Virus record (IMG/VR): IMGVR_UViG_3300040979_000011
Coordinates: 1-60,531 of that record
Length of the DNA: 60,531 nt
Direction: 5' to 3' (one strand)
From: a virus
Lineage: Duplodnaviria > Caudoviricetes
The notes under the pieces were generated by a model. The model searched no databases and was not told the origin of the DNA. It saw only the letters and a list, made by a program, of their open reading frames with translations. The position numbers and the translations under genes were made by a program. Positions 2,467-47,527 of this stretch are shown here, piece after piece (position 1 is the stretch's first letter; each line of letters opens with the position of its first letter).

Positions 2467-3018
2467 ATGAGTGAAGAAAGAGAGATAGACGAGCTAGTTG
2501 ACTTTATCAAGGCGAGCTCTAAGCCTACTCATAAAGAGCTCAAGCGTCGCACAACTTTAGCTCCAGACGCGCCGGCGCCGCACCTAGAGGCCGTCATAGC
2601 CACTCAGGGCTTGGAGCCTACTACCAAGGCTCTGGAGGCCTGGAACGCGCGTCTAGCTGGGCATCCGATCATCGATATCGCTCATGATATGGGCGTCAGT
2701 ATTGAGCTCGCCAAAAAGCTCGTGAGCGAGGTGCACACCGCGATTTATGAAGACCTCAAAACCAACATGGACCTCAACCGTCAACTGGACCTGGGGCGGA
2801 TCGACTCGATCATTCGAGGACATCTTCCAAGTGCCCAGGCAGGGGATACTGACAGTGCAAATGTCGTCATCCGGGCATTATCACATCGAGCTCGTCTCAC
2901 CGGCTGCGAGCAGCCTAGCGATCCAGCCCGCGATGGTTCACCCCGGAATGTGATGATCTGGCTCACTAACCAGTTACCGTCGATCAATAAAATCGTCGAT
3001 GCTTTACCGCCAGAATGA
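2467..3018 (+). CDS. HTH protein, possible terminase small subunit
   Basis: HTH-like IIDIAHDMGVS, then RIDSIIRGHLPSAQAGDTDSANVVIRALSHRARLTG, resembling phage small-terminase-like proteins. Confidence 0.5.
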   Translation: MSEEREIDELVDFIKASSKPTHKELKRRTTLAPDAPAPHLEAVIATQGLEPTTKALEAWNARLAGHPIIDIAHDMGVSIELAKKLVSEVHTAIYEDLKTNMDLNRQLDLGRIDSIIRGHLPSAQAGDTDSANVVIRALSHRARLTGCEQPSDPARDGSPRNVMIWLTNQLPSINKIVDALPPE

Positions 3019-3725
3019 GCAACGATTTTGTTCCTTTCGATCCGAGCTTAGTGGATTTCATTCGCCGGATTTTATCAGTGGCTGAAACCGGTAAGCCCGA
3101 ATGGGATCCGAGCGCAGTTTATGTGTACGCCGATGACAATCGGTTTAAGCCGTCACGCAAACAGGTCACGCTCTCGATTGGATTTACTGAAGGCGGCAGC
3201 AATTTGAGAAAAGTGTTGCAACGCTATGTGGATAAAGGCGGCGCGTTGGCGGTGAGTTTCGCTGGTTATCTGCCAACCATCGGCAGCGGACCAACGCTAG
3301 CCAGTGATCAGAAATTTATTGGCCTGCTCAAAGAAGCCGGTAAAGAGCCAGCGATGGCGAACGCGCAAAAGGAATGTTTCGAAGAGTTCTATTTAGGACC
3401 AGCGTTCGCTTGGGCAAAGAAACACGGGTTCACCCAGCCGCTCTCATTCTTAGTGATTGCTGATTCTTATCTGCACTCAGGCTCGATGCTGGGCTTTTTG
3501 ATGGACAAATTCGCGGAGAAAAAACCGGTCGATGGTGGCGACGAGCAAGCGTGGATCAAAGCCTACTTGAACGCACGTAAAGCGTGGCTCGCGAATCATT
3601 CCAACAGCGTCTTGCGCGGCACAGTTTACCGCGCCAACTGTTATATCGCTGAAACCAATCGCGACAACTGGCTACTGGCGCAAGCGCCGGTTAACATGCA
3701 TGGCACCAATGTGAGTATGGCTTAA
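3015..3725 (+). CDS. GH46 chitosanase/lysozyme-fold protein, probable endolysin
   Basis: ILSVAETG...YADD...TLSIGFTE and IADSYLHSG motifs typical of GH46-like phage lysins. Confidence 0.7.
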   Translation: MSNDFVPFDPSLVDFIRRILSVAETGKPEWDPSAVYVYADDNRFKPSRKQVTLSIGFTEGGSNLRKVLQRYVDKGGALAVSFAGYLPTIGSGPTLASDQKFIGLLKEAGKEPAMANAQKECFEEFYLGPAFAWAKKHGFTQPLSFLVIADSYLHSGSMLGFLMDKFAEKKPVDGGDEQAWIKAYLNARKAWLANHSNSVLRGTVYRANCYIAETNRDNWLLAQAPVNMHGTNVSMA

Positions 3726-6038: not shown

Positions 6039-6576
6039 CCGCTGTTGTTTGGGCGGGCCCTTGGTTTGCAGGCTGCGGAGCGCGGCTCGGGCGCGATGAC
6101 ATGACGCCACGCGCCATGATGTCATGTCAGTAAGGCTGAGGCGCTCCAACTGTATCAGAAGAGCTCTGGGAGCTGTATCAGAGGCCGCTCTCTCCCTGGG
6201 GCGCGATCGTCCTCCGGGGACGAGCTCGGCGTTAACGCTCGCCGGCCCTCCTCCCCTATAGCGCCGGGCCCTCCCCGCATTAAACGGCATTAGTCGGGGG
6301 GTATTGCCCGCTGCAAGAGGAGGTGGAAAGCATTGCGCCACCCCCTCAAGTGGTGGGCCTAGTTTTTCCAAAAGGGTGGTCAGAGACGCGGGTAATTTTC
6401 CAGGAGATCTGGCCTAAGAGATAACCTTCATCGATACGGTGGCGCAAGATATCGAGAGCGACCTCGCGAGCGGGCCAATGGTTGAGGTTGTCGGCATTGA
6501 TGGTGAACTCTACGGAGACAAAGAATTTAGGCATTACGGTATTGATGCATTACATCTTTTATGCAAAGCTGCAACT

Positions 6577-6921
6577 ATGAAAGCCATCACTGTGCGTTTA
6601 AGCGAAGATGAATATGAGAAGTTACGCTTTGAAGCGTATGAAGCGCGAGAGAGCGTAGGGAGGAGGGCGGGGGTGCTACTGGGGAAGGAGCTGATGAAGT
6701 TGGGCAAAGCGGAGGTGCGTCAGCGCACTGGTGAGGTCCTGAGGCACGCCGTCACTGATTCACCCAGTCAGGGCGTCAAAGATGCGTTGCCGAAGAAGGG
6801 AGTTGAAGTATCGTTAATGGAACCGGTGAATACGGTGGAAGAAGCGACGCGGAGGGCGGCGGAACTTAAACGGTTGCAGGCGGCGCGCAAAGACATGGAG
6901 AAGCGCTATGGGGCGAAATAA
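6577..6921 (+). CDS. Ribbon-helix-helix (CopG-like) DNA-binding protein
   Basis: N-terminus MKAITVRLSEDEYEKLRFEA. Confidence 0.55.
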   Translation: MKAITVRLSEDEYEKLRFEAYEARESVGRRAGVLLGKELMKLGKAEVRQRTGEVLRHAVTDSPSQGVKDALPKKGVEVSLMEPVNTVEEATRRAAELKRLQAARKDMEKRYGAK

Positions 6922-7498
6922 AATAGCCCAAGGGAGACAGAATCTGTCGACATTTCGAGCGACCCCGGAAGAGGCCCGTAAATTAGATCAATGCTTGGAA
7001 AAGCTAGGTATCGGCACCCGATCAAATTTTTTCCGATGTATCAGCAATCAGTTTATTGGGCAGGTGCAAGCCGGGGAATTGCCTTGGCCGCCAAGGTTTA
7101 AAGATCAGTCCAGTCGGAAAGAATCACCAAAGAAAAATGGGGGCTCAGGGTTCACTCTAACTCCGCCACCAACCCTGATGGCTAAAGCGGATGGGGAGCT
7201 ATATGCAGAAGTAGGTGCGTCGATTGGGGAGAAGCGAAGAGTTATAGGCAAAGAAGTCATTGAGAAACTGGGGAAAGTAATACTGCGGGATCGAATCAGT
7301 ATGAGCGAGCTAGCGGCGGCGAGCGGGGTCCAACTACCGACATTGCGCAATTGGTTTGCTGGTAAGCACGTGCCGACCACTAAGAAGCTGCAGCCCCTCT
7401 GTGATTATCTATCAGAAAGATGGACTGAGGCGGATGAAGTGGAATTGGAGCACTACAGGAGACTGATCTTCGGCCAGGAAAGAGGAGCGAAGCTTTGA
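6908..7498 (+). CDS. Transcriptional regulator with RHH-like N-terminus and XRE-type HTH
   Basis: STFRATPEEARKLD...RSNFFR and ISMSELAAASGVQLPTLRNWFAGKHVP. Confidence 0.65.
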   Translation: MGRNKIAQGRQNLSTFRATPEEARKLDQCLEKLGIGTRSNFFRCISNQFIGQVQAGELPWPPRFKDQSSRKESPKKNGGSGFTLTPPPTLMAKADGELYAEVGASIGEKRRVIGKEVIEKLGKVILRDRISMSELAAASGVQLPTLRNWFAGKHVPTTKKLQPLCDYLSERWTEADEVELEHYRRLIFGQERGAKL

Positions 7499-7749
7499 GA
7501 AAGAAAGTGCCCGAACGCAAATTCCAAGGGATACCGGTCAGGGAGGCGCGAGCGGCCATGCACGTTCAGCCCAACAAACGCGACACCGCCGAGCAAATTC
7601 ATGTCAACCGAGATTAGCCCTAGGGCTCGAAAGTCGCCGCGAGGGACGGCACTGCGCGTTGGCCCGGTTGACGAACCGGGGGCTTGGTAGCAACTCCGCG
7701 CGCTCCAGGGCCTGCTCGCCGTGGCAGGCCCATCCCTCCGCTTACTTTT

Positions 7750-8580
7750 ATGAAATCCTCTAAAGAGCTGGTAAAACTCCCTAAAGAGTTGGTGAAAGAG
7801 ACTCAGAGCGTCCTGATCGATAAGCTGATGCAGGACTACGAGCTGAAGAAAGAGCATGTGGCCGAAGCGGTCGAGTTGTACTACGACGCGCAGAAATTGC
7901 GGATAATGCACGCCAATAAACTGCGCAGCGAAGGGCAGAGCGAGTTGACGACTTGGTTCGCGAAGTGGCTGGAGTACGGCGAGAAACTCTTGTACAAAAA
8001 ACTCGAAGGCTGGGTCAACGGCCCGGAAGCGCCCGCGGAGACCAAGTGGGCAATTGAACAGTACGGCATCGGGCCGATCATTGCTGCGGGGCTCGCCGCG
8101 CACATCGACGTGACACGCGCCCGGACGGTCAGCGCGCTCTGGCGGTTTGCCGGTCAGGATCCGACTGCGGATAAGAAGGTCAAAGGCCAGAAGCTGCAGT
8201 ACAACGCGCGGCTGAAAACCCTCTGCAGCTATAAGCTAGCGGAGAGTTTCGTCAAGGTCAGCGCTAAAGAGGGCGCTCGCTATGGGATTTTGTACGCGGA
8301 GTTCAAACGCGAGGAGCTCGAGCGCAACGAAAGCGGCCGCTACGCTCTAGCGGCCAAACGGGAGCTAGCGGCCAAGAACTTTAAGAAACCCGAAATTAAA
8401 AAGCTCTTGGAAAGCGGAAAGTTGCCCGATGGGCATTTGCACTCACGGGCCAAACGTCGAGCGGTAAAGATCTTCTTACAACATTACTGGCTCAAAGCGC
8501 GTGAGGCGCGTGGGCTGGAAATCAACGAGCCCTATGCGATGGCGATCCTAAAGCATTCGGGCCAGATCAAAGCGGCTTGA
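7750..8580 (+). CDS. tasA: Nop/IS110-C-terminal-domain RNA-binding protein with no evident nuclease domain, TasA-like (TIGR-associated)
   Basis: Coiled coil (AVELYYDAQKLRIMHANKL), then GIGPIIAAGLAAHID...SALWRFAG...YNARLK and HSRAKRRAVKIFL; no DEDD RuvC or HNH; directly followed by a dual-repeat array. Confidence 0.8.
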   Translation: MKSSKELVKLPKELVKETQSVLIDKLMQDYELKKEHVAEAVELYYDAQKLRIMHANKLRSEGQSELTTWFAKWLEYGEKLLYKKLEGWVNGPEAPAETKWAIEQYGIGPIIAAGLAAHIDVTRARTVSALWRFAGQDPTADKKVKGQKLQYNARLKTLCSYKLAESFVKVSAKEGARYGILYAEFKREELERNESGRYALAAKRELAAKNFKKPEIKKLLESGKLPDGHLHSRAKRRAVKIFLQHYWLKAREARGLEINEPYAMAILKHSGQIKAA

Positions 8581-8583
8581 AGC

Positions 8584-9220
8584 GAGCAACCCCCATAATG
8601 AGCACGAGCGAGCCCAGATAAGCGAGTAACCCATGGAAAACGAGCGAGCCACAGCAGGCGAGTAACCCACGTAGGCTGAGCGAGCCATATGATAAGAGCA
8701 ACCCAGGACATTAGAGCGAGCCACATTAGAAGAGAAACCCATATAGGGAGAGCGAGCCATAATAAAAGAGAAACCCACGAAGCACGAGCGAGCCATCCGG
8801 ATAGATAAATCCAAACATGAAGAGCGAGCCATAGTGCGTGAGAAACCCAGCAACGTTGAGCGAGCCAATGAGCGCGAGCAACCCATTCGCGATGAGCGAG
8901 CCACATCAAGCGAGTAACCCAAGATAACGGAGCGAGCCCTTGACACTGAGCCACCCAATAAATAAGAGCGAGCCAGACTAGCTGAGCAACCCATATCGTT
9001 AGAGCGAGCCAGAACTCATGAGAAACCCATACTTGAAGAGCGAGCCCAATTTCCAGAGTAACCCATGGAAAACGAGCGAGCCACATAACGGAAGTAACCC
9101 ACAAGAACAGAGCGAGCCCTAACGTGGTGAGTAACCCATCGGCAAAGAGCGAGCCACACAACGGGAGTAAACCCATGAGAGTTGAGCGAGCCATAAGACA
9201 TGAGCAATCCAGTAAATAAC
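8584..9220 (+). repeat. TIGR-like tandem interspaced guide RNA array: 17 units of 36-37 nt plus a partial leading unit
   Basis: GAGCGAGCC-N9-GAG(T/C/A)AACCC-N9 units begin at 8606, 8642, 8678 and so on to 9110 (exact 36-nt period), then 9147 and 9184; spacers nearly all distinct. Confidence 0.9.
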
Positions 9221-9598
9221 GAGCGAAAAGAACTCGAAGACCAAGTGCGAGCCGAGCTGCAGGAGCTCGGCCGCGACATCAAAGCGAGCCTGCCAGAGGA
9301 GTTCGGTTTCGCGTTACTAGTGACCGCTGCCGAGCCGGGTGCGGCGCTGCTGTATTGTTCGACGCTTGATCGAGGCGATGTCCTGCAAATGATGCGGGAG
9401 TTCATTGCCACTAACCGGGAGGAACGGGTCTGGCAACGGGAGATGCCGGAGGTAGAGCTAAGTGAAGAGTTTGAGGCTTGGTGGGAAGCACAGCTTAAGC
9501 GCAAAGGGATGGCGGCACCAATGCCCGGTCGACCAGTGGCCGACCAAATCTACGAATGGACCAGGGACGCCTTTACCGCTGGGAGGGCGAGCGCATGA
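9200..9598 (+). CDS. Hypothetical phage protein
   Basis: LPEEFGFALLV...YCST..R.DV motif; ATG lies inside the last array unit. Confidence 0.65.
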   Translation: MSNPVNNERKELEDQVRAELQELGRDIKASLPEEFGFALLVTAAEPGAALLYCSTLDRGDVLQMMREFIATNREERVWQREMPEVELSEEFEAWWEAQLKRKGMAAPMPGRPVADQIYEWTRDAFTAGRASA

Positions 9599-10044
9599 AG
9601 AATCGCCTCAGGGAACAACTCGAGCTCATTGGCGAGCTGGAGCCAGCCTTACGGAAGTTGGCCGCTTCCATGGGGATCCGGCACGCCGTGTTAACTGAAG
9701 ACGGCGAGGTAATGGAATGCTCGTTTCTTACCTGGGCCCGGTGGTTAGACAAAAACCGCTCACACCGGATCATCGCGCAGGAGAAGTTGGAAGGCGGCTA
9801 CTTTCTTTCCACCGTGTTCCTCGGGCTCAATCATCAGTACGCGCCGGGAGCGCGGCCGCTCTGGTTTGAGACCATGCTCTTTAGCCCGCCCACGGGCTCA
9901 AAGAGTATGATCACTGGCAAAGAGCACTCGCTGGGCAATGAATGCTTTTGCCAGCGCTACGCGACATTAGCCGAAGCATTGGCTGGGCACGAGCAAGCAC
10001 TGAAAGAGTTCAGTGCTAAGGTTCGCCCTCGGCCGTCCGATTAG
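9595..10044 (+). CDS. Conserved phage hypothetical protein
   Basis: STVFLGLNH...PLWFETMLF...RYATLAEALAGH motif; ATGA coupling. Confidence 0.7.
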   Translation: MKNRLREQLELIGELEPALRKLAASMGIRHAVLTEDGEVMECSFLTWARWLDKNRSHRIIAQEKLEGGYFLSTVFLGLNHQYAPGARPLWFETMLFSPPTGSKSMITGKEHSLGNECFCQRYATLAEALAGHEQALKEFSAKVRPRPSD

Positions 10045-10112
10045 TATCCTCGTCCCCTTCCTCTCTTTCTTTTGTCAAGCTCGCTAACAACTCTTTCCAA
10101 TCAATCCAAGGC

Positions 10113-10334
10113 ATGGCGTCTACTCCTTCTTCTTGTTGCTTGTGGATACTTTACCGGATAGAGGCCAAACATTTTGTGGCCGGGCTGGTGGTTGATTCTA
10201 GTATCAACAAAGTTATCAGCGCTGCCCCGATCTTGGCCTGGAGTCTGGGTAAACATTGGCCCGATGTTATGGACGCGCTTTACCGGGCTAATTATCAAAT
10301 TGAATTTATTGGATCCTTGGACGGCTGGTTGTAG
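10113..10334 (+). CDS. Hypothetical protein
   Basis: HFVAGLVV...AAPIL.W motif seen in small phage proteins. Confidence 0.5.
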   Translation: MASTPSSCCLWILYRIEAKHFVAGLVVDSSINKVISAAPILAWSLGKHWPDVMDALYRANYQIEFIGSLDGWL

Positions 10335-10345
10335 GGCTGGTGGGG

Positions 10346-10540
10346 CTAGTTGCCGCTAAAATCCGATATCATGATCTCGTTTGGCTGCCGGCTGTACTGG
10401 TTAGCCCGCTGGCAGATTTCCCAAGCTTCTGATTCGGTGTACCGGCCAGCCTTATGTAAGTCGGTGGTGTAGCCGCTTCGCTGTGGCGTCCACCAAGCGT
10501 TATGCTCATAGCTCCAGATTAAAAAAAGATTTTCACTCAT
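10346..10540 (-). CDS. Small conserved phage protein
   Basis: IWSYEHNAWW...GYTTDLHKAGRY motif. Confidence 0.6.
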   Translation of the reverse strand: MSENLFLIWSYEHNAWWTPQRSGYTTDLHKAGRYTESEAWEICQRANQYSRQPNEIMISDFSGN

Positions 10541-10692
10541 TGTTCCTCGCCTCCCCGGCTATCCTCATGCCAGGTATCGAGTCAGCTCGATCAAGACCAT
10601 TATGGCTAGCAGTGCCAATGCCAACAAAATCAGTTTGTAGAGCCAGGGCAGTGGCTTGTCGTCGGGCTCGTGCTTCTTTTCGGACTTCATAG

Positions 10693-12564
10693 CTAAGGCG
10701 CGCTAAAGACTACATCGACCCAGTAGCTGCGCGAAACTTCGGTGGCCGGAAATTTTGTCTCGTTGCCATAACTGTATCCACCACGGGTCGCGCTCAGCGG
10801 GCCATTGGTGTAGGCGGTCGCAAAAAAGTCTTGGCTGACTGAGTAATGCCCGCCTGGCGCGTGATAGCTGACCCAGTAGGCTTGGCCGGCGCTGATTAGC
10901 ACCGGAGCATCCAGCGCGATTTCTTGCCAGCCGTAGTCGGTCTCATTGCAGAATGTTACCGCAGCCAATTGTTTGCCGCTTGCGTCCCAAAGAGCTCCGG
11001 TGTGGTTTCCGCCATTACCGGGGCCGCCTTTATAGAAGCGGATCGCTACGACCCGGCCATCGATATCGGAGATGAACTGGGTGCCGAGCTCGACACTCTT
11101 TGAATCGCTCTGCATCGCAATCTCTGGAGTCGGGCTAAAGAGCCGAACCAGCGCAAAAGGCTCTGGAGTTGGCGTCGGCCTCGGTGGGCTCGGAGTCGCA
11201 GTCGGCTCCGGAGTTGGGGTCGGGCTGGGTGGGCTTGGAGTTGGGCTTGGAGTCGGCGTCGGAACCGCACCGCTGACCAGCGGATGGGGATAAGCCAGCG
11301 GCCGATAGCTAGTCACCGGCGGATTGTACAAATGATAAGGGTAAGCGGAACTGCTCGGCGGCGAACCCGGTTGTGGGTAGCTGGGAGAGTGGACCGTTTC
11401 GCTTGGTGGCGCCAAAAAATAGTCGCGATCTTTCTGCACAAAAATTCCGTCATTGGGGTTCCAAGTACCGAAATTTCCAGGCTGTTGTGGGGCTCCGCCA
11501 AACTCGTTGTCCCAAAAGTAACAATTATTTAATTGTGCCTCAGCTGGCCAGCTGGTGCGCAAGGGATTAAATATATCGGTCCGATAACCTTCCTCATCGG
11601 TCATTGCCACTCCACGCGGCATGCTACCGCTCAGCACGGAGAACTGGTTGCGGGCAATGATCCATCTACCCCCACGCAGATAGATGAACCGATAGCCATT
11701 GTACATCTTAAAGACGCAATCGGTGAGCTCGCCCTGGATTGTGCCCTGATAGCTGCCAGCATCACGCCAGTAACCCTGGGTCCCATGGCTGCCAAAGGGG
11801 CCATCGTTGGAGCCCTTGTAAGCGCTGGTATCAAAGACACAGTGTCGGCACACGATTACTCCGGCTTGATCAAAATCGGTCAGCCCGCTCTGGCCGCCTG
11901 GACTGTAGCCCGAATCAAGCAAAAAAGTGCAATCCTCGCAGTAGACGGCGTTGCGGGTACCGAAACTGGGCGGCGCGCGCAGTTGGGGATCCCCGTTGCC
12001 ACTGACCATCCAAGCGGTTTCCTGGCCCGCATTGCGCAAGGTGCAATGGTCCATCACGCCAAAGGCGTTGTAATGCCAGTAAATCTGTCTTTTTCCGGCA
12101 TTAAAATAGCAGTGGTCGATCCGGATATTGGTCCAGCTGCCATCCATGGTCTCGGCTCGGCCGGGACCGAAAATGGCTACACAAGGTCGATCGCTGGAGG
12201 GTTTGATCACCACGTTGTCGATGTAGAAGCCCGTGACCCGGATGAAGGGATCGCCGCTTGCCCCGGCGATTGTGATCATCGCGCCGCTATAACTCGAGCT
12301 GCGAACGATCTTGGTTTCATCCATTCCGGCCCCTTGCAGAGTCAGGGCTTTAGAAATCGAGATCCCACTGCTCCAGGTCGCGGTGCCAGCCGGCACCACA
12401 ACGGTATCACCGGCTGCAGCCGAGTTAATGGCCGAGACCACATCATTCAGATTAGGGCTGGCCGCGTTGAGGGTTGCGCCTAGGAGGGCCTCAAGTGGAG
12501 CCAACAGAATTGCGGTCAGAGCCGCCGGGACCAGGAACAGATTGAGCAGGATTTTTTGGTGCAT
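10693..12564 (-). CDS. Secreted pectin-lyase-like beta-helix protein with Pro/Thr linker and C-terminal DUF4082-like domain
   Basis: Signal peptide; AINSAAAGDTVVVPAGT; RIDHCYF and DHCT beta-helix turns; (PT)n linker; VELGTQF...AIRFYKG...YWVDVVF. Confidence 0.75.
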   Translation of the reverse strand: MHQKILLNLFLVPAALTAILLAPLEALLGATLNAASPNLNDVVSAINSAAAGDTVVVPAGTATWSSGISISKALTLQGAGMDETKIVRSSSYSGAMITIAGASGDPFIRVTGFYIDNVVIKPSSDRPCVAIFGPGRAETMDGSWTNIRIDHCYFNAGKRQIYWHYNAFGVMDHCTLRNAGQETAWMVSGNGDPQLRAPPSFGTRNAVYCEDCTFLLDSGYSPGGQSGLTDFDQAGVIVCRHCVFDTSAYKGSNDGPFGSHGTQGYWRDAGSYQGTIQGELTDCVFKMYNGYRFIYLRGGRWIIARNQFSVLSGSMPRGVAMTDEEGYRTDIFNPLRTSWPAEAQLNNCYFWDNEFGGAPQQPGNFGTWNPNDGIFVQKDRDYFLAPPSETVHSPSYPQPGSPPSSSAYPYHLYNPPVTSYRPLAYPHPLVSGAVPTPTPSPTPSPPSPTPTPEPTATPSPPRPTPTPEPFALVRLFSPTPEIAMQSDSKSVELGTQFISDIDGRVVAIRFYKGGPGNGGNHTGALWDASGKQLAAVTFCNETDYGWQEIALDAPVLISAGQAYWVSYHAPGGHYSVSQDFFATAYTNGPLSATRGGYSYGNETKFPATEVSRSYWVDVVFSAP

Positions 12565-38483: not shown

Positions 38484-41400
38484 ATGCCTACGGCTGCAGA
38501 GCGCGTGTCTTTGGAGGAGGCCAGTCGATATGCCGGGAGCCCAACGCCATGGACATCTGAAAACGCTCCAGATGTTGGCCTTGATCCGAACAAAGGATTT
38601 ACCAATCCACAATTTGGAGTCTCGCAGCCAGTCCAGTCCACTCTGCCGCCGGAAACAACTCCGCCTCCTTCGATGGCACCGGGGCTGGGAACGATAGGCG
38701 GAGCGCCTCTTGCTGAGCCGACAAAAGAAAAATGGACCCCGGCTGATGCTGGTGCAAAGCCAGTTAGTGATCAGAGCAAGGCAGAGACCGCAACTGACAA
38801 CAAGCCCAGCGATAAACCTGCAGGGAAATCATGGACTCCGGCTGATGTCGGTGCAAAGCCAGTCGATCAGACCGCAGCTTCACAGCCCACAGAGAAATCA
38901 TGGACCCCAGCTGATGGCGGTGCTAAGCCAGTCACCACCGAGGCCCAGCCACAGCCGCAGCCACAGCCGCAACCCCAGCCGCAGGCCAAGCAACCGTTAG
39001 TCGTCCCAGCCCCGACACCTCAAGGACCGACGACCACCGAACAACTGCCCGAAGGGCAAGAAGATCAGCATACCCGGATCAATGACCTGATTACTTCCGG
39101 GAAAAGTCCGGGTGAAGCCCAGGCCATCGTCAGTGGCAAGGAGCCTAAGACAATCTCAGGAGCACCGCCGAAGGTAGTCAAACCCGAGGAACCTAAAGCG
39201 CAGGCCGAGCCCGAGGCTCCTCAAGTGCCCCTGGAGGAAGATCCTGTCTTGAAGCACTACCGGGAGGTGGCTCGGCAAAGGGCTCAGGCAGAAGCTCAAC
39301 CCCAGACAACGCAACCGCAGCAGCCTCCCCAGATGATTGAGTACTCGGCTAACCCCAATGCTTATAGCAAGGGCCGGGGCGGTAACCATATCCAGAACAT
39401 TATCCTGCATTCCAGTGATGGCAGCGAAAAGGGCGATGTTAACCAGCTGACTCAACACCTCTCGTCCCATTACTATGTCACCCGGGATGGACGGATCTAT
39501 CACTTCGTTAATGACAACGACAGCGCGTGGCATGCCGGAAAAACCATCAATAATAACACCTACGGCAATTCGGCTACCATTGGCATTGAACAGGAGCACG
39601 TCGACGGCAAACAGGATTGGCCCGAGGCCCAGGTGCGAGCCACTGCTCGATTAACATCCTACCTGCAAAACAAATATGGTCTCAGTAATAGCAACGTCCT
39701 GAAACATTCGGATATCGCACCGGAACGCAAAGTCGATCCGATCGATTATCCCTGGGATAACTTCTATAAATATGTGGCCGAATCCGGCGGCGGCGTCGGC
39801 AAAGGCATAGCTGGTCACGGCGGCGGCGCACTACTGCCGAAGTCCACGGCTGGACTCAATGTCACTCATTTCGGTTACAAGACTGATCCGAATCTCGATC
39901 CCGAAAGCGCCAAAGGTCATGGCAAGTACGTCGACCACATGATTGCTGGCTACGATGTGGCACTGAATAAGGCAGGAGCAGCAAAAGTTGGGAACCCTAA
40001 GCCCGGCGCAAAATTTATTTATGATGGCAGAGAATTTCGTTACGCAGACGCCGTTCCAGAGAAATATGCTGATGCGCGCTTTGACGTGTTTGACCCCAAT
40101 TTCGGCGGTCGCGAAGCAGAGGGCGGCAAAGCTGTCGCTGGTGCCGGTAAAGGCGGCAAAGCTCTCCCCGGTGGAGGTGAAGGCGGGAAACCATCACTCG
40201 AAGGCGGCGGAGGTGCTCCAATTCTCGGCGGTGGTCCGATGGTTTCGGTAGGCTATGCCGGGCCTAGTGGTTCTGCGCAAGCAGAGCAGCAGCAAAGCCC
40301 TTTTTATGCCGGAGGTGGCCGTGGTGGTGGTGGTGCGACCGAAGCTGCACCGGGCGGTGGCGAGTTTTCCATTTCTTACCCTCCCTCACTTGGAGGCGTT
40401 GTTATTGTTGGTGATGGAAAAACCAAAGCGAAACGAATTGCTTCAAAAGAAGAAGAGGAAGAGGAAGAAGATCCCGTGGTCACAGCGCTGATGACTCGTG
40501 GGTTTACACGCCCACAAGCTCTTAAGTTTGCCCTGAGCAGTCGGGCTCTCATTTCCCCTATAGGTGTTCGGGGTGTTCGGACGCAACCTCCAGCTGCTCC
40601 GATACAGCCTTCGACCGCCAAGCCTTTGGCGCTCCCTCCGCCTGCGCCGGCTGCGGCAACGGCGACAGGCGTCAAGCCTTCTCCCGAGGTTACGCTCCCG
40701 TCAAAGCAACCGCAGATCCCTGCTCGGAAAGTTCCACCAACTGCTGCACCGTCAACTGCTGCGTCAGCCGATAAACAGGCGGTAGTCCAGGCTTTAGTGG
40801 GCATGGGTATCAAGAAAGCGCATGCTCAACAGCTCGTAGCCAATGTGCATGGCGCTAACGTAGATGAGCTATTGCGAAACGCTTTAAGAGCGCACGCCCA
40901 GGCCGTCAGGGGAGTTGAGGGCGGCTCCTTCAGGCCACCGCAGCAAACTCCTCCTCCAGCGCCGCCGACACCTAAGCCTCAGGAGCAACGGACCACTGCG
41001 CCAGAGCCGGTGTTGCATAAAGCGCCAGTTCCTGAGCCAGAACCACGACCGGCTGAGGAACCGACTCCGTATCCTACGACAGGTGGAACCCATGGTGTAG
41101 CAAACCCGCCATCATTCGCGAAGCTTACACCAGGACTGAAGTTGTCTGACGCGGTGAAGGAGCACGCTACACTGGTCTCTGAGGATGACCCGCGCGTCAA
41201 GAAACAGGCTGACGGCATGACCAAGGGCGAGCACTTCGTCCCAGGAGATCCGATTCATGATCAGCTGCTTAATGGGTTGCCCGAAGGCCAAGGCGGACGC
41301 CAGCATCAGATACTAGGCGAAGCTGAGCAAGCAATCGCGGAAAAGCGACCAATGCATATCAGCTATCTTTCCGCGCCCAAAGAAGCCCAGCGTTACCCAA

Positions 41401-44225
41401 CCCGCGAATCGCGAATGGTTCAATATGACGAGCACAGCCCTGAGGCGCGTCTCATGGGTACAACAGTGGGCCAACTAGTGGGGCACAGTTTCATCCCGAC
41501 TGCGATTGGCATCAAGCTTCCTACCAAAGCCGATGAACCCCACCAGAGCTATATCCAGGGCATCTCAACTAACATTCTGGCCAACAATTTCCAGCACCTC
41601 AATGAGAAGCTGGCCTCGATGGGTGTGGAAACACCTTACAAGAGTCTCGGACACAAATTCTTTAACGATTTAGAAGGTTATTTTTCTAATTTGAATGCCG
41701 GACATAGCGGCACCGGACGCGGTTATGCGATTGGCACCGAACACCACCCCAGCGAACCGGACACCTCACATGTGCCCTATAAGCTGACTCATAAGGAAAC
41801 TGATTTTATCAATACGGTGATTAATAACACCGCAGCATTTGCCAAACACGAGGACGCGCAGAAGCTGCGGGACTTGGCCAGAGCCAATGGCACTCTGATC
41901 ACAGAGGAAGGTGAGACCAACCGCATGCGGCACAATATCGAACAGCACGAGCCCGGTTGGCGGCAACGAGTGCTGGAGCCAAGTATCCGAACTTTTAAGA
42001 CCGGCCTGATCGTTGCTCACCATGCAGGTGAGCAGAATATGCCGCAGACCATCCGGCCCGGTAAAGAGTTCCAGGATCTGACGCGAGCCATACAACGCAC
42101 CAGTGAGCGGGGTCGACCGGATGTGCCGATCAGTGTTTCGCTCCATCATAGCTTCCACGACAATCGATTAATCAACAAGATCGAACGTGAGTTCTCCGAA
42201 AACCGGATCGACGAGGCAGAGGCACGCAGACAGTTAGAAGCCATGGGTGAAGATCCCAATGAATACCGTTTTCACGGCGGCAGCGGTGGCTTGATCACGC
42301 CTTATGAAGAGGACCCGGAATCGATCACGCCGGAGGAACACACCCAGATGCGGGATAACCTGCGCAAACAATGGGTGAGCGGAAAACTGAATATCGAGGA
42401 CTACCGCAGAAAAGCTGCCGAAGTTCCGTTACCCTCAAAGCCGTCCCAGGCAGCTGCGCCCAAGCCAATCTCAGAGCCCGAAGAGCCTGAGACACCCGAA
42501 GAAACGCCGGGAACGCCCACTGCCGTGCCGAAAACTGCCGCCCCTATTCCCAGGCCTAAACCGGTACCAGAAGCGCCCCCAGAGCCTACAGAGAAACCGC
42601 AGATACCAAAGAAACCCGGCACTGAAGAACTTGCTAAGCCCCAGAAAGCTCAACCACCGGCACTGGGCGAAGCGCCCAAGGCAGAGGCCAAACCTGAAGC
42701 TGAGGGTGCCCCATCTAGCCGTGAAGCAGGCGAGGCATATCGGCCACCTGTAGAGCCGCCGCCGGCACCGGGTGAGGTGCCCACCCCGACCAAGGCGAAA
42801 GCCTTAACCAAGCCTGCCCCCAGCGCCGCGCAAGGCCTAGAGAAACCCAAGTGGGAGCGCGCAACCGAGAAACAGCGGCAAGCTTATTTAAAACAGCGAG
42901 TAGCTCAGACCCTCGAAGAGCAGCATTCCGATGCCATGCCGCTCAAGCCGATCATGGACGAAAAAGGTGGTTATTCTTATGATCCGCAAGGCAATCCGCG
43001 CTTTGAGCAGCCCGATTATAATCTGGTTAATTCGCCATTATTAAAGAAGAAAGCCCTTGGGCAGATTGAGGGCGCGGACGACCACGAGGACCAATTGAGC
43101 GAGGATGAGCATAACCACCTCAACTTCGTTGAGCGACGGCGCTTGAGCGCAATGCGCAAGACTAGCGCCGTCAAAACCATGGGCGATCGGATCGTCCAAA
43201 ACTACAATCAGATCAAAGACATTCCCGAGATCGCTGCCGGTAAAGGCTGGTACTCGCGGATGCGTGAGAAGCTCCAGCAACATCTGGGCGATGATCGTGA
43301 GATGTTCGCTCAACTGCTGGGAGCCACCAGTGCTAAAACGCCGGTGCGTCACAACTTCATCCAGGCTCTGGACGCTTATGAGCAATGGAAACGTGGCGAT
43401 TTCGATAACCACATCCAGAAGTATCTGGAGGCCCATAACCAGCTCCAGCAAGGCGGCAAAGGCGCGCTGACTAAGTACATGCGCGAGAAAGGCATCCTGG
43501 GTGAGAACGATCCTGATCATAAGAGTGATGCAGCGGCCATGGCCCACTGGATTGATCATCACGGGATCTTGCCTAAGCAGCAGAACGGATCCAAGTACAA
43601 TGCCAATAGCGATCAGGTCTTGAAGGTGCTCGCCGGTACATGGCTCAAGGAAGTCGGCGCACCCAAGACGCCCAACTTCGCCGGGAACCTATCCGGGCGC
43701 ACGCTCCAGGCGACAATCGATGTCTGGGCTGCACGGCACTTGCGTCGACTCGGCTACGAGGGCCAGACCGGCGACGAACCCTGGCGGCATCAGCCGCGCG
43801 GCGAACCGGGCGTGAGTGGCCTCGATTTCGCCTTCAGTCAGGACGCGATGAAGCATGCGGCCGACAAGATCGGCGTTAACCCAGACGATCTCCAGGCTAT
43901 CCTCTGGTACGCTGAGAAACATCACTGGGACCAGCAAGGCTGGACCCGGGGTGAGGGCTCCAAGAAAGCATCCTTTGACGATGTCTTTGATAAAGTCTTT
44001 TCTAAGACTGGTGAGCCGATGAGTTCAAATGATCTCCGGGCCCATTATGCGGCGGAAGCCGAAAAGGCTAAGCGCGTCACTAAAGCCCAGGAATACATGA
44101 CTCACGCTGATCCTAAGATGCGGGCCAAGCTCGAACCCTACATGGCCAAGCACGGGCTCGCACACGAGGACCTGCGGGCGGCTGCGCCGCAAGAAGAAGA
44201 GCAGGGCCTCGAAGAAGCGGCTTGA
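38484..44225 (+). CDS. 1913-aa multi-domain virion protein with N-acetylmuramoyl-L-alanine amidase (Amidase_2) domain
   Basis: IILHSS...SSHYYV...AWHAG...NSATIGIE...HSDIAPERKVDP; further folded domains separated by Pro-rich linkers. Confidence 0.85.
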   Translation: MPTAAERVSLEEASRYAGSPTPWTSENAPDVGLDPNKGFTNPQFGVSQPVQSTLPPETTPPPSMAPGLGTIGGAPLAEPTKEKWTPADAGAKPVSDQSKAETATDNKPSDKPAGKSWTPADVGAKPVDQTAASQPTEKSWTPADGGAKPVTTEAQPQPQPQPQPQPQAKQPLVVPAPTPQGPTTTEQLPEGQEDQHTRINDLITSGKSPGEAQAIVSGKEPKTISGAPPKVVKPEEPKAQAEPEAPQVPLEEDPVLKHYREVARQRAQAEAQPQTTQPQQPPQMIEYSANPNAYSKGRGGNHIQNIILHSSDGSEKGDVNQLTQHLSSHYYVTRDGRIYHFVNDNDSAWHAGKTINNNTYGNSATIGIEQEHVDGKQDWPEAQVRATARLTSYLQNKYGLSNSNVLKHSDIAPERKVDPIDYPWDNFYKYVAESGGGVGKGIAGHGGGALLPKSTAGLNVTHFGYKTDPNLDPESAKGHGKYVDHMIAGYDVALNKAGAAKVGNPKPGAKFIYDGREFRYADAVPEKYADARFDVFDPNFGGREAEGGKAVAGAGKGGKALPGGGEGGKPSLEGGGGAPILGGGPMVSVGYAGPSGSAQAEQQQSPFYAGGGRGGGGATEAAPGGGEFSISYPPSLGGVVIVGDGKTKAKRIASKEEEEEEEDPVVTALMTRGFTRPQALKFALSSRALISPIGVRGVRTQPPAAPIQPSTAKPLALPPPAPAAATATGVKPSPEVTLPSKQPQIPARKVPPTAAPSTAASADKQAVVQALVGMGIKKAHAQQLVANVHGANVDELLRNALRAHAQAVRGVEGGSFRPPQQTPPPAPPTPKPQEQRTTAPEPVLHKAPVPEPEPRPAEEPTPYPTTGGTHGVANPPSFAKLTPGLKLSDAVKEHATLVSEDDPRVKKQADGMTKGEHFVPGDPIHDQLLNGLPEGQGGRQHQILGEAEQAIAEKRPMHISYLSAPKEAQRYPTRESRMVQYDEHSPEARLMGTTVGQLVGHSFIPTAIGIKLPTKADEPHQSYIQGISTNILANNFQHLNEKLASMGVETPYKSLGHKFFNDLEGYFSNLNAGHSGTGRGYAIGTEHHPSEPDTSHVPYKLTHKETDFINTVINNTAAFAKHEDAQKLRDLARANGTLITEEGETNRMRHNIEQHEPGWRQRVLEPSIRTFKTGLIVAHHAGEQNMPQTIRPGKEFQDLTRAIQRTSERGRPDVPISVSLHHSFHDNRLINKIEREFSENRIDEAEARRQLEAMGEDPNEYRFHGGSGGLITPYEEDPESITPEEHTQMRDNLRKQWVSGKLNIEDYRRKAAEVPLPSKPSQAAAPKPISEPEEPETPEETPGTPTAVPKTAAPIPRPKPVPEAPPEPTEKPQIPKKPGTEELAKPQKAQPPALGEAPKAEAKPEAEGAPSSREAGEAYRPPVEPPPAPGEVPTPTKAKALTKPAPSAAQGLEKPKWERATEKQRQAYLKQRVAQTLEEQHSDAMPLKPIMDEKGGYSYDPQGNPRFEQPDYNLVNSPLLKKKALGQIEGADDHEDQLSEDEHNHLNFVERRRLSAMRKTSAVKTMGDRIVQNYNQIKDIPEIAAGKGWYSRMREKLQQHLGDDREMFAQLLGATSAKTPVRHNFIQALDAYEQWKRGDFDNHIQKYLEAHNQLQQGGKGALTKYMREKGILGENDPDHKSDAAAMAHWIDHHGILPKQQNGSKYNANSDQVLKVLAGTWLKEVGAPKTPNFAGNLSGRTLQATIDVWAARHLRRLGYEGQTGDEPWRHQPRGEPGVSGLDFAFSQDAMKHAADKIGVNPDDLQAILWYAEKHHWDQQGWTRGEGSKKASFDDVFDKVFSKTGEPMSSNDLRAHYAAEAEKAKRVTKAQEYMTHADPKMRAKLEPYMAKHGLAHEDLRAAAPQEEEQGLEEAA

Positions 44226-44524: not shown

Positions 44525-44570
44525 TAATCGACCGTTTACTTGAAAGATCAAGTAAATAATCCAACTATTT
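44525..44570 (-). promoter_or_regulatory. Conserved promoter/operator motif, copy 3
   Basis: ATCGACCGTTTACTTGAAAGATCAAGTAAATAATCCAACTATTT with a perfect TTTACTTGA/TCAAGTAAA dyad. Confidence 0.7.
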
Positions 44571-46179: not shown

Positions 46180-46325
46180 GTGCGTGCAGTAATTTACCAC
46201 ACGCACTTTCTGCGAAGCCTCTGTTTAAGCCGTTTCGCTGGTCGTTTCCCTGGGAGCGAAAAAATAATTTGACATGATTATTCACTTTGACTTATCAAGT
46301 GTGGTTTGCATTCGATGTCGGTCAA

Positions 46326-47527
46326 TGAAACTTGAGCCTCATCCAATCGCACTCTGCTATCCGCCCTTGAGCGAGGTGGATTTTTGCGACTTGAAGGAGA
46401 GCATCCAGAAAAACGGCCAACTCAATCCCATTACCTTATATGAAGGCAAGGTGTTGGACGGCACTCAACGTCAGCGTGCTTGTAATGAGCTTGGGATCGA
46501 GTCCAAGACAATCAGTCCCCAAATTGATGATCCAGTTGCTTATGTTGTTAATCAGAACGAACGACGACGTCATTTAACCAAACTCCAAAGAACTGAAGTG
46601 GCTGCACGCCTCGTAGGGCTTAAATGGGGGACTAATCAGTATGCGCAAAAAGTGGAGTCCTCGCGTGAGGACTCCACTTTTCCATTTACAAAAGCAGCTA
46701 AACTGATGGGCGTTAGCGAGCCGCAGGTGTCGCGATTTAGAAAGGTGCTTAAGTCGGGTGTACCGGAGTTGATGCAAGCGGTGAAAGAGAAACGAGTCAA
46801 CCTTGATATCGCGAGCAAAATCGCCAAAGCCTCTCCCGATCAACAGCGGCTAGAGCTGACACGACCTCCCAATGTTCTTAGGGCACAATTCTCACCGCGA
46901 AATAAAAAGGAAGTTAAGGTAATTGATCCCAAGCAAGATGAGCTTTTGGCTGAGATCAACGCGCCCAGCATTTTCCCAAAAGGGTTGCCGCTCCCGGTTC
47001 ATCCGACCAGACCTGACCACACGAAAATCATTCAGGAGGCGATCCTGACTCTGCAAAGAAACGAGCCGGAGATTGCGCGGTTGCAATCGCGGAAACAACT
47101 CAACGAAAAGATCTGGGTCTACACGCAATGTATCCAGACTTATGCGCTCAAGATGGAGGATAGAACGACCGGCCCGATCGATCTGTCCTGGATTCGCTGG
47201 GCTCAATCGGTTGCCGACAAATACCGGCGACGAGAAGAGATGTTTCTTCGGCAGGAACGGAGGGCCGGGACGCTGAGTAAAGAGCGGCAACCAGAACCGC
47301 CAAAGAGACGCTTCGTAGAAAAGGGTTATCAGGGCCGATTCAAACGCTTAAGTATCGAATACAAGCGCTTGCTACGAAAAATGGGTTTCAGTTTGGCTGA
47401 CGAAACTCAGCTCCTAGGCGACATCCAAAAGCTGACCAAAAGTTATTTCGAAGCATTTCGGGGACCGCAGGATCGCAATGGTTCTGTGCCCGCCTCGCAA
47501 CCATCGGAGCTATGTGCTCCGCATTAA
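46326..47527 (+). CDS. ParB N-terminal domain + HTH protein
   Basis: HPIA...LKESIQKNGQLNPI...LDGTQRQRAC...N.RRRHLT..QR; HTH AAKLMGVSEPQVSR. Confidence 0.85.

Follow-up and report, generated by a model that had tools for sequence, protein, structure and literature searches.

A soil phage locus that is very probably a TIGR-TasA system with two-part guides

Introduction

TIGR-Tas systems, which pair a Nop-domain Tas protein with an array of alternating repeats and short spacers, were published in 2025 (Faure et al. 2025, PMC12045711) and have since been catalogued at scale, with about 20,000 tas loci and 4,126 dual-repeat arrays (Xu et al. 2026 preprint, 10.64898/2026.09.09.750476). Here we describe a locus at positions 7750–9226 of the IMG/VR virus record IMGVR_UViG_3300040979_000011, analysed over its entire 60,531 nucleotides (nt) and referred to below as the window. 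The locus is very probably a TIGR-TasA system, composed of a tasA gene and an array of two-part guides, in what is probably a temperate soil phage. It is a further member of the known family and not a new kind of system, and in itself it is useful as annotation but no discovery.

Several described members bear on this locus, as given in the available parts of the sources. The TasA protein of Flavonifractor plautii, FpTIGR-TasA, is nuclease-free and carries 36-nt RNAs (PMC12045711). SpTasH, from a Salicola phage, processes its own precursor guide RNA (pre-tigRNA) without metal ions, with Tyr289 and His296 as catalytic residues (PMC13421893). MbTasA, finally, has been shown to repress in a guide-dependent manner and to bind DNA in electrophoretic mobility shift assays (10.64898/2026.09.09.750476). 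How TIGR arrays acquire their spacers is called an open question in both PMC12045711 and the 2026 preprint.

A model-made reading of the letters and open reading frames (ORFs) of the window had already proposed a TasA-like system here; this reading is called the original prediction below.

A nuclease-free Tas protein

The tasA gene (7750–8580, plus strand) encodes a protein of 276 amino acids, as originally stated, which on the evidence of its translation, its PDB and PHROGs matches and a structure model is a Tas protein of the TasA subtype. Among the sequences of PDB structures, the best matches are TIGR-TasR (9mty, E 6.6e-22) and TasH (E 8.9e-13). In PHROGs the protein falls into phrog_4285, labelled ‘transposase’ (E 1.9e-37), and in Pfam it finds sub-threshold matches only, to ParB (E 0.029) and Transposase_20 (E 0.051; 14.4 bits, with the cut-off at 21.3). 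A structure modelled with AlphaFold from 37 homologues (mean predicted local distance difference test score 87.2, predicted template modelling (TM) score 0.82) was compared with the PDB by Foldseek: TasR and TasH chains take all of the first ten places (E 1.4e-8 to 3.7e-6, probability 1.00), and the runners-up are IS110-family recombinases, at TM scores of about 0.43–0.50 when normalised to the query and 0.39–0.44 when normalised to the target. Both sequence and fold thus bear out the expectation of a Nop/IS110-type protein of the TIGR-Tas family. An IS110-family transposase was considered and rejected, on account of the absence of a DEDD domain, the sub-threshold score of Transposase_20 and the weaker fold matches compared with TasR and TasH.

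The original prediction had further held that no RuvC, DEDD or HNH domain is present, and this holds. A Pfam scan found no nuclease domain in the protein. The alignment with TasR begins at TasR residue 116, past the RuvC part, and at query residue 39, leaving 38 residues before it, and the longest possible upstream extension of the ORF (from a TTG at 7684) would add only 22 residues; such lengths cannot accommodate a RuvC or HNH domain. In the model, residues 34–90 form a helical hairpin (helices 34–61 and 65–90) that aligns with the coiled-coil region of TasR and is predicted, by homology, to be a coiled-coil dimerisation element.

The catalytic pair of SpTasH is retained. In a HMMER alignment, Tyr262 and His269 of the window’s TasA line up with Tyr289 and His296 at the same spacing, and in the alignment of 37 homologues His269 is invariant and Tyr262 is kept in at least 90%. 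Since these residues both match the catalytic pair and are conserved, TasA is expected to cut its own precursor through Tyr262 and His269.

Anatomy of the array

Downstream of tasA and on the same strand lies a TIGR array of 17 head-to-tail units (8606–9219, plus strand), delineated by repeat parsing, Tandem Repeats Finder and a shuffle test. The edge 9-mer GAGCGAGCC occurs in 17 copies, starting from 8606 to 9184, with fourteen spacings of 36 nt followed by two of 37 nt; as for the units themselves, 14 are exactly 36 nt long and are followed by units of 37, 37 and 36 nt. Across 8624–9196, Tandem Repeats Finder detects periodicity at 36/37 and 72/73 nt. In the whole window, AGCGAGCC has 22 matches, 17 of them inside the array, against 3.64 expected (none of 100 shuffles reaches 22), and GAGNAACCCA has 13, with 12 inside the array, against 0.37 expected.

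In each unit, an edge repeat, GAGCGAGCC(A/C), and a loop repeat, GAGNAACCCA, alternate with two 8-nt spacers, of which A follows the edge and B the loop. Both repeats – the edge, GAGCGAGCCA, and the A-rich loop, GAGNAACCCA – are 10 nt long. Over the 14 regular units, positions 1–9 are invariant and position 10 varies between A (11 units) and C (three units); positions 19–28 read GAGNAACCCA, where the A at position 28 never changes, and the remaining 8+8 columns carry almost no information. Because the base after CC is so nearly fixed as A (11 of 14 in the edge, 14 of 14 in the loop), the repeats are 10 nt long and end in CCA, and the spacers have 8+8 nt, not 9+9 nt as had been proposed. Other elements of the original reading were correct, namely the 17 units with a period of 36 and then 37 nt, repeats that start with GA and end in CC(A), and spacers that are almost all unique. 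Both repeats begin with GAG and end with CCA (box C); box D is AG, as in SpTIGR. Irregularities are few: unit 15 has a spacer A of 9 nt and unit 16 a loop repeat of 11 nt, nearly every unit keeps 9 of the 10 loop positions and the edge 9-mer does not vary among the 17 units.

All 17 A spacers are distinct, as are 16 of the 17 B spacers, with TGGAAAAC present in units 1 and 13. Their GC content is 38.8%, compared with 54.7% in the window, and none of 5000 random samples was as low; in this respect, therefore, the spacers are unlike the phage’s own DNA. On the transcribed strand they are rich in A and poor in T (106 A and 61 T in 273 nt).

The periodicity could in principle belong to a protein-coding repeat of 12 codons on the minus strand, where two long ORFs (8532–9194, 220 amino acids; 8548–8994, 148 amino acids) cross the array and a 36-nt period is divisible by three. 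This reading is scarcely credible. The 37-nt units shift the frame, so that the peptide motif changes along the ORF, and related arrays mix units of 36, 37 and 38 nt; the open frames themselves follow from composition, as the paucity of T in the spacers leaves few A, and hence few stop codons, on the minus strand. The repeats moreover match published guide-RNA repeats on the plus strand, a match that fixes the orientation of the array as that of tasA and identifies which repeat is the edge and which the loop. A CRISPR-Cas system was also considered and rejected, in line with the original assessment, given the two alternating 10-nt repeats, the 8-nt spacers and the lack of any match to Cas families among the ORFs scanned (36 against PHROGs, 17 against Pfam). 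An Rfam search of 7400–9700 at E up to 1 gave no match.

At its 5′ end, the array is preceded by a degenerate stretch (8580–8605, plus strand), which reads directly as an edge/loop hybrid. An edge-like AAGCGAGC (8580–8587), sharing its first base with the tasA stop codon TGA (8578–8580), runs into a loop-like GAGCAACCCC (8584–8593; 9 of 10 positions of the loop repeat), followed by 12 nt. The array had been placed right after the stop codon: it does follow tasA closely on the same strand, but the first full edge repeat comes 25 nt past the stop codon, with the degenerate repeat between. At the other end lies a 3′-truncated edge repeat (9220–9226, plus strand; GAGCGA at 9221–9226), from which the last guide would take its 3′ half. 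TIGR arrays typically end in such a truncated edge repeat (Faure et al. 2025, PMC12045711).

Further on, two edge-like repeats, GTGCGAGCCG and AAGCGAGCCT (9245–9291, plus strand), each agreeing at 8 of 10 positions and standing 37 nt apart, fall within the first 90 nt of an ORF at 9200–9598, whose ATG at 9200 lies inside the last array unit. Possibly they derive from array units that have decayed, and it looks as if either the array was once longer or the ORF grew over decayed units. This ORF has no match in Pfam or PHROGs and no relative among the fetched loci.

Relatives of TasA and its array

Homologues of TasA are numerous – 1398 at E ≤ 0.001, mostly of 260–300 amino acids – and 70 related IMG/VR loci were found (individual loci are numbered below with the prefix L). 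A repeat array with a period of 33–37 nt accompanies 45 of 72 related loci by a crude period finder, which does not count 30-nt arrays. Among the 11 closest loci (L004–L014; 52–66% protein identity), ten have an edge repeat identical to that of the window, again on the strand of tasA, whereas L010 shows none. In the more distant arrays of L002 and L003, box D is UG in both repeats, so that edge and loop change together.

Among 129 units, 120 distinct A and 120 distinct B spacers occur, and spacers are shared between loci only by the near-identical pair L011 and L012. Units of 36, 37 and 38 nt are mixed in the related arrays. No gene neighbour of tasA is conserved among the relatives. As the repeats are kept while the spacers are not shared and the flanking genes are not conserved, tasA and its array behave as a self-contained module. 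The first 40 residues of the window’s TasA do not occur in the supplementary text of PMC12045711, in which Table S1 is included in part, a finding that is no proof of absence from the catalogue.

Turnover of the array

Comparisons of close relatives give some view of how such arrays change. A 16,779-nt contig from a different soil study has flanks about 95% identical to those of the window (63 differences in 1164 nt). In its array, units 2 and 12 have been skipped cleanly, 36 nt each time, about 73 additional letters (about two units) stand within unit 9, some 90 nt over units 4–6 cannot be aligned at a threshold of 88% and spacer B of unit 7 is altered at at least five of its eight bases; these are minimal counts, derived from 40 of the 100 differences. 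In a low-depth contig from a third data set, unit 3 is joined directly to unit 16, with 12 units removed.

Within the window’s array, three pairs of spacers are at most one base apart, against 0.25 expected, and only 2 of 2000 column shuffles reach three. They lie in units 1 and 13 (spacer B), 10 and 17 (spacer B) and 14 and 16 (spacer A), and in each case the partner spacers are unrelated. Across the clade, with L011 omitted as a duplicate of L012, such pairs make up 8 of 1349 comparisons within arrays versus 6 of 9884 between arrays.

Two independent pairs of near-identical relatives differ in a more pointed manner. L002 and L003 have eight differences in 15,170 nt, seven of which fall in the array and six in a single spacer (L002:10646–10653). 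The six differences between L017 and L020, in 12,769 nt, all fall in one 8-nt spacer (L017:7222–7228) between intact repeats. In both pairs it looks as if one spacer had been rewritten in place, and no donor copy of the rewritten spacers was found in their own loci outside the array. The arrays of five other near-identical pairs (L017/L018, L017/L019, L011/L012, L008/L075 and L059/L061) show no differences. As a separate observation, 12 of the 13 differences between L011 and L012 cluster in 89 nt outside the array (L011:4080–4168), suggestive of a patch of recombination or of a hypervariable stretch within a gene.

In the window’s lineage and two others, then, arrays change by clean gain or loss of units and, apparently, by in-place rewriting of single spacers, which offers a testable lead on guide renewal. 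That TIGR arrays renew their guides by a spacer-precise process, in which an 8–10-nt spacer is rewritten between untouched repeats alongside clean unit gain and loss, is a tentative idea to which we give well under even credence. Such renewal would differ from acquisition at the leader end, as in CRISPR, and a dedicated mechanism, if real, would answer the question of TIGR spacer acquisition. Among TIGR-Tas papers mentioning duplication together with spacers, none appears from its listing to have array evolution as its subject, and the available text of the 2026 preprint (10.64898/2026.09.09.750476) contains no word starting with ‘duplicat’.

The same comparisons bear on whether the locus is a decaying, non-functional TIGR relic. 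The degenerate first unit, the two irregular 37-nt units, the edge-like remnants in the next ORF and the lack of a detected target could all be read as signs of decay. A relic is nevertheless very improbable: the 17 edge 9-mers are free of any change and the loop is nearly as well kept, the tasA frame is intact and retains the residues that are invariant in 37 homologues, and the relative from the other soil study preserves the repeats while its spacers and unit content differ.

Proposed mechanism and search for targets

For transcription, processing, dimer formation, DNA binding and repression, published relatives serve as the model. By analogy with them, we consider it likely that TasA uses self-processed guides and that its function is to bind and block DNA. 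The tasA gene and the array, which share a strand with almost no gap, would be cotranscribed. Tyr262 and His269 would then cut within each edge repeat, between GAGCG and AGCCA – by analogy with the guide of TaTasR, which starts with AGCCA and ends with UGCG (Table S3 of PMC12045711) – and would release 36-nt guides made up of AGCCA, the 8-nt spacer A, the 10-nt loop, the 8-nt spacer B and GAGCG.

Each guide would take a TasA dimer to a contiguous 16-bp site composed, on one strand, of spacer A and then the reverse complement of spacer B. The two spacers would thus pair with opposite strands, and no protospacer adjacent motif would be needed. The order of the two halves is that of the TaTasR target strand, in which spacer A is directly followed by the reverse complement of spacer B (Table S3 of PMC12045711), and the contiguous 16 bp are those of SpTasH, an 8+8 system in which the flanking duplex runs from position 17, past the unwound target (PMC13421893). 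Having no nuclease domain, the complex would bind and bend DNA and block transcription or replication without cutting. The 17 guides are most likely aimed at host genes or competing mobile elements, given that none matches the phage’s own 60.5 kilobases (kb). The role of repressor or competition factor that was first suggested stays conjectural, no target having come to light in the searches below.

Targets were sought in four arrangements – spacer A plus the reverse complement of spacer B (the published geometry), its mirror (reverse complement of B plus A) and two same-strand controls – with relaxed gaps. Pairing the spacers in this way, as the original prediction had envisaged, yielded no more matches than chance would, whether in the window, in related phage DNA (1.06 Mb) or with the guides of the whole clade. 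In the window, at up to two mismatches and gaps of 0–4, the four arrangements together gave seven matches, one in the mirror arrangement and six in the controls, which is chance level. In the 72 related loci, at up to one mismatch, there were six, one on opposite strands and five in the controls. When all 135 guides of the clade were searched against 81 loci, exact matches only, three were found, with about 0.3 expected per arrangement. One of these, an L012 guide, matches the window at 44528–44544, between genes, exactly and in the right order; it was set aside as a chance match, as its 1-nt gap breaks the rule of a contiguous 16-bp site, and with so many comparisons such a match falls within chance. 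Inspection by eye found no copy of the 9-nt edge core, on either strand, in the 17 predicted target sites. In tens of gigabases, a 16-nt site is expected many times by chance, so that single matches there are uninformative. The 2026 preprint, in its available text, makes the same point about false positives.

Several points weigh against the proposed system and its mechanism. In the published geometry, none of the 17 guides has a site in the window at up to two mismatches and gaps of 0–4, nor in the 72 related loci (1.06 Mb) at up to one mismatch, where about two would be expected per arrangement; the record is only about 82% complete, and a self-target could lie in the missing part. A scan of 6300–10800 found no sigma-70-like promoter before tasA, a type that the host may or may not use, and no intrinsic-terminator-like site after the array on the plus strand, and promoter and terminator counts across that region equal those in shuffles; a terminator is typical of TIGR arrays and not defining (Faure et al. 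2025, PMC12045711). Overlap of the last unit with the start of the ORF at 9200–9598 means that coding sequence may constrain the array at its 3′ end, or that this end may be decaying. Finally, the TasA tested as a repressor, MbTasA, is a different protein from a different lineage.

The same machinery might serve instead to regulate the phage’s own genes, as a lysis–lysogeny or timing switch. The position of tasA, directly downstream of two putative regulator genes – an RHH-like ORF (6439–6921; weak, E 0.009) and an HTH_3 ORF of the Cro/CI type (6908–7498; E 2.1e-5) – would fit such a role, as would the integrase, and AT-rich spacers would suit promoter regions. Self-regulation is unlikely all the same: no site in the 60,531-nt record fits any guide in the published geometry at up to two mismatches, and the neighbours of tasA are not conserved in relatives, which argues that the module is not tied to one regulatory region.

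Another possibility is that TasA acts with the same guides as an accessory factor and not as a repressor, providing RNA-guided bending for an integrase or loading a ParB-like protein. Both ideas are raised in the Discussion of Faure et al. 2025, a paper that also describes tasA-tasParB operons (PMC12045711), and the window does encode a ParB-like protein (46274–47524; phrog_4715, E 1e-12), relatives of which adjoin tasA in L076 and L080. In the window, however, about 38 kb separate this gene from tasA and the two do not form an operon; neither it nor the integrase gene has an array or repeat nearby, and the available parts of PMC12045711, PMC13421893 and the 2026 preprint contain no experiment showing such a role. 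An accessory function thus seems decidedly improbable. As a side observation, the window’s ParB-like protein is 28–33% identical to the products of the genes immediately after tasA in L076 (10320–10670) and L080 (10502–11065), an arrangement that resembles the published tasA-tasParB operons.

Genomic setting

The module is phage-encoded, as first proposed: the window is a linear IMG/VR virus record, estimated to be 82% complete, whose genes – by a PHROGs scan – include those for tail-fibre, tail, ParB-like and integrase proteins and for a 1913-amino-acid protein with an amidase domain. The phage is probably temperate, as suggested by the integrase together with the regulator-like ORFs just upstream of tasA. 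The public sequencing runs containing the stretch come from soil metagenomes of two or more studies; no RNA run is listed among them, which says nothing about expression. Relatives of TasA occur on contigs binned with genomes of Chthoniobacterales, Acidobacteria, Solibacteraceae and Bryobacteraceae; these bins give hints of the type of host and prove nothing for the window’s phage.

Upstream of the TIGR module lies an ORF of the GH46 (chitosanase) family (3015–3725, plus strand), and just past the module, on the opposite strand, a gene for a protein with DUF4082 and a pectate-lyase-like part (10693–12564, minus strand), which may be a depolymerase or tail spike. The ORF of 1913 amino acids (38484–44225) has its amidase/endolysin-like domain at residues 287–458 and probably encodes a virion-associated cell-wall hydrolase or a giant protein resembling a tape measure.

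Comparison with known systems

The more remote comparison is with IS110-family recombinases (IS621, ISCro4) and archaeal Nop5, with which the window’s TasA shares a Nop-type RNA-binding fold. In contrast to the IS110 family, the window’s system has no DEDD/RuvC-like domain, bridge RNA or transposon ends, and has an array of many guides.

Within the Tas family, TaTIGR-TasR from Thermoproteota (9mty) is the best PDB match of the window’s TasA by both sequence and fold, and the source of the target rule applied above. According to Table S1 of PMC12045711, in its available part, TaTIGR and ParTIGR share with the window the edge core GCGAGCCA and a loop ending in AACCCA. Unlike the window’s system, TaTIGR-TasR is archaeal, has a RuvC domain that is active, and combines 9+9-nt spacers with 9-nt repeats that start with UG.

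As for nuclease-free proteins, FpTIGR-TasA resembles the window’s locus in its lack of a nuclease and its downstream dual-repeat array. It comes from a gut bacterium and has edge repeats of the AGTGTACC type, whereas the window belongs to a soil phage; the two proteins are compared here by description (PMC12045711, available part). MbTasA and catalytically dead TasR proteins, all nuclease-free in effect, show the guide-dependent DNA binding and repression proposed for the window’s TasA, yet the proteins of that preprint are of a different lineage, and those structurally characterised use stem-loop guides and have no Tyr/His loop (10.64898/2026.09.09.750476, available part).

The closest parallel in format is SpTIGR-TasH, which is likewise phage-borne (Salicola phage CGphi29; PMC12045711; structures 9w03, 9w04 and 21kl; PMC13421893; sources available in part). 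Its array has the same 10+8+10+8 layout and 36-nt period, with an edge repeat, AAGCGAGCCA, identical to the window’s at 9 of 10 positions (Table S1 of PMC12045711); in both systems the two repeats begin with AG as box D, and the loop differs, being AGACAACCA in SpTIGR and AGNAACCCA in the window. SpTasH has an N-terminal HNH nuclease and cuts both strands, whereas the window’s TasA has no nuclease domain; its Nop domain aligns with the window’s protein at E 8.9e-13, and the Tyr/His processing pair is common to both. With an array in the SpTIGR format and an intact Tyr/His pair, the window’s TasA is thus a natural nuclease-free counterpart of the well-studied SpTasH.

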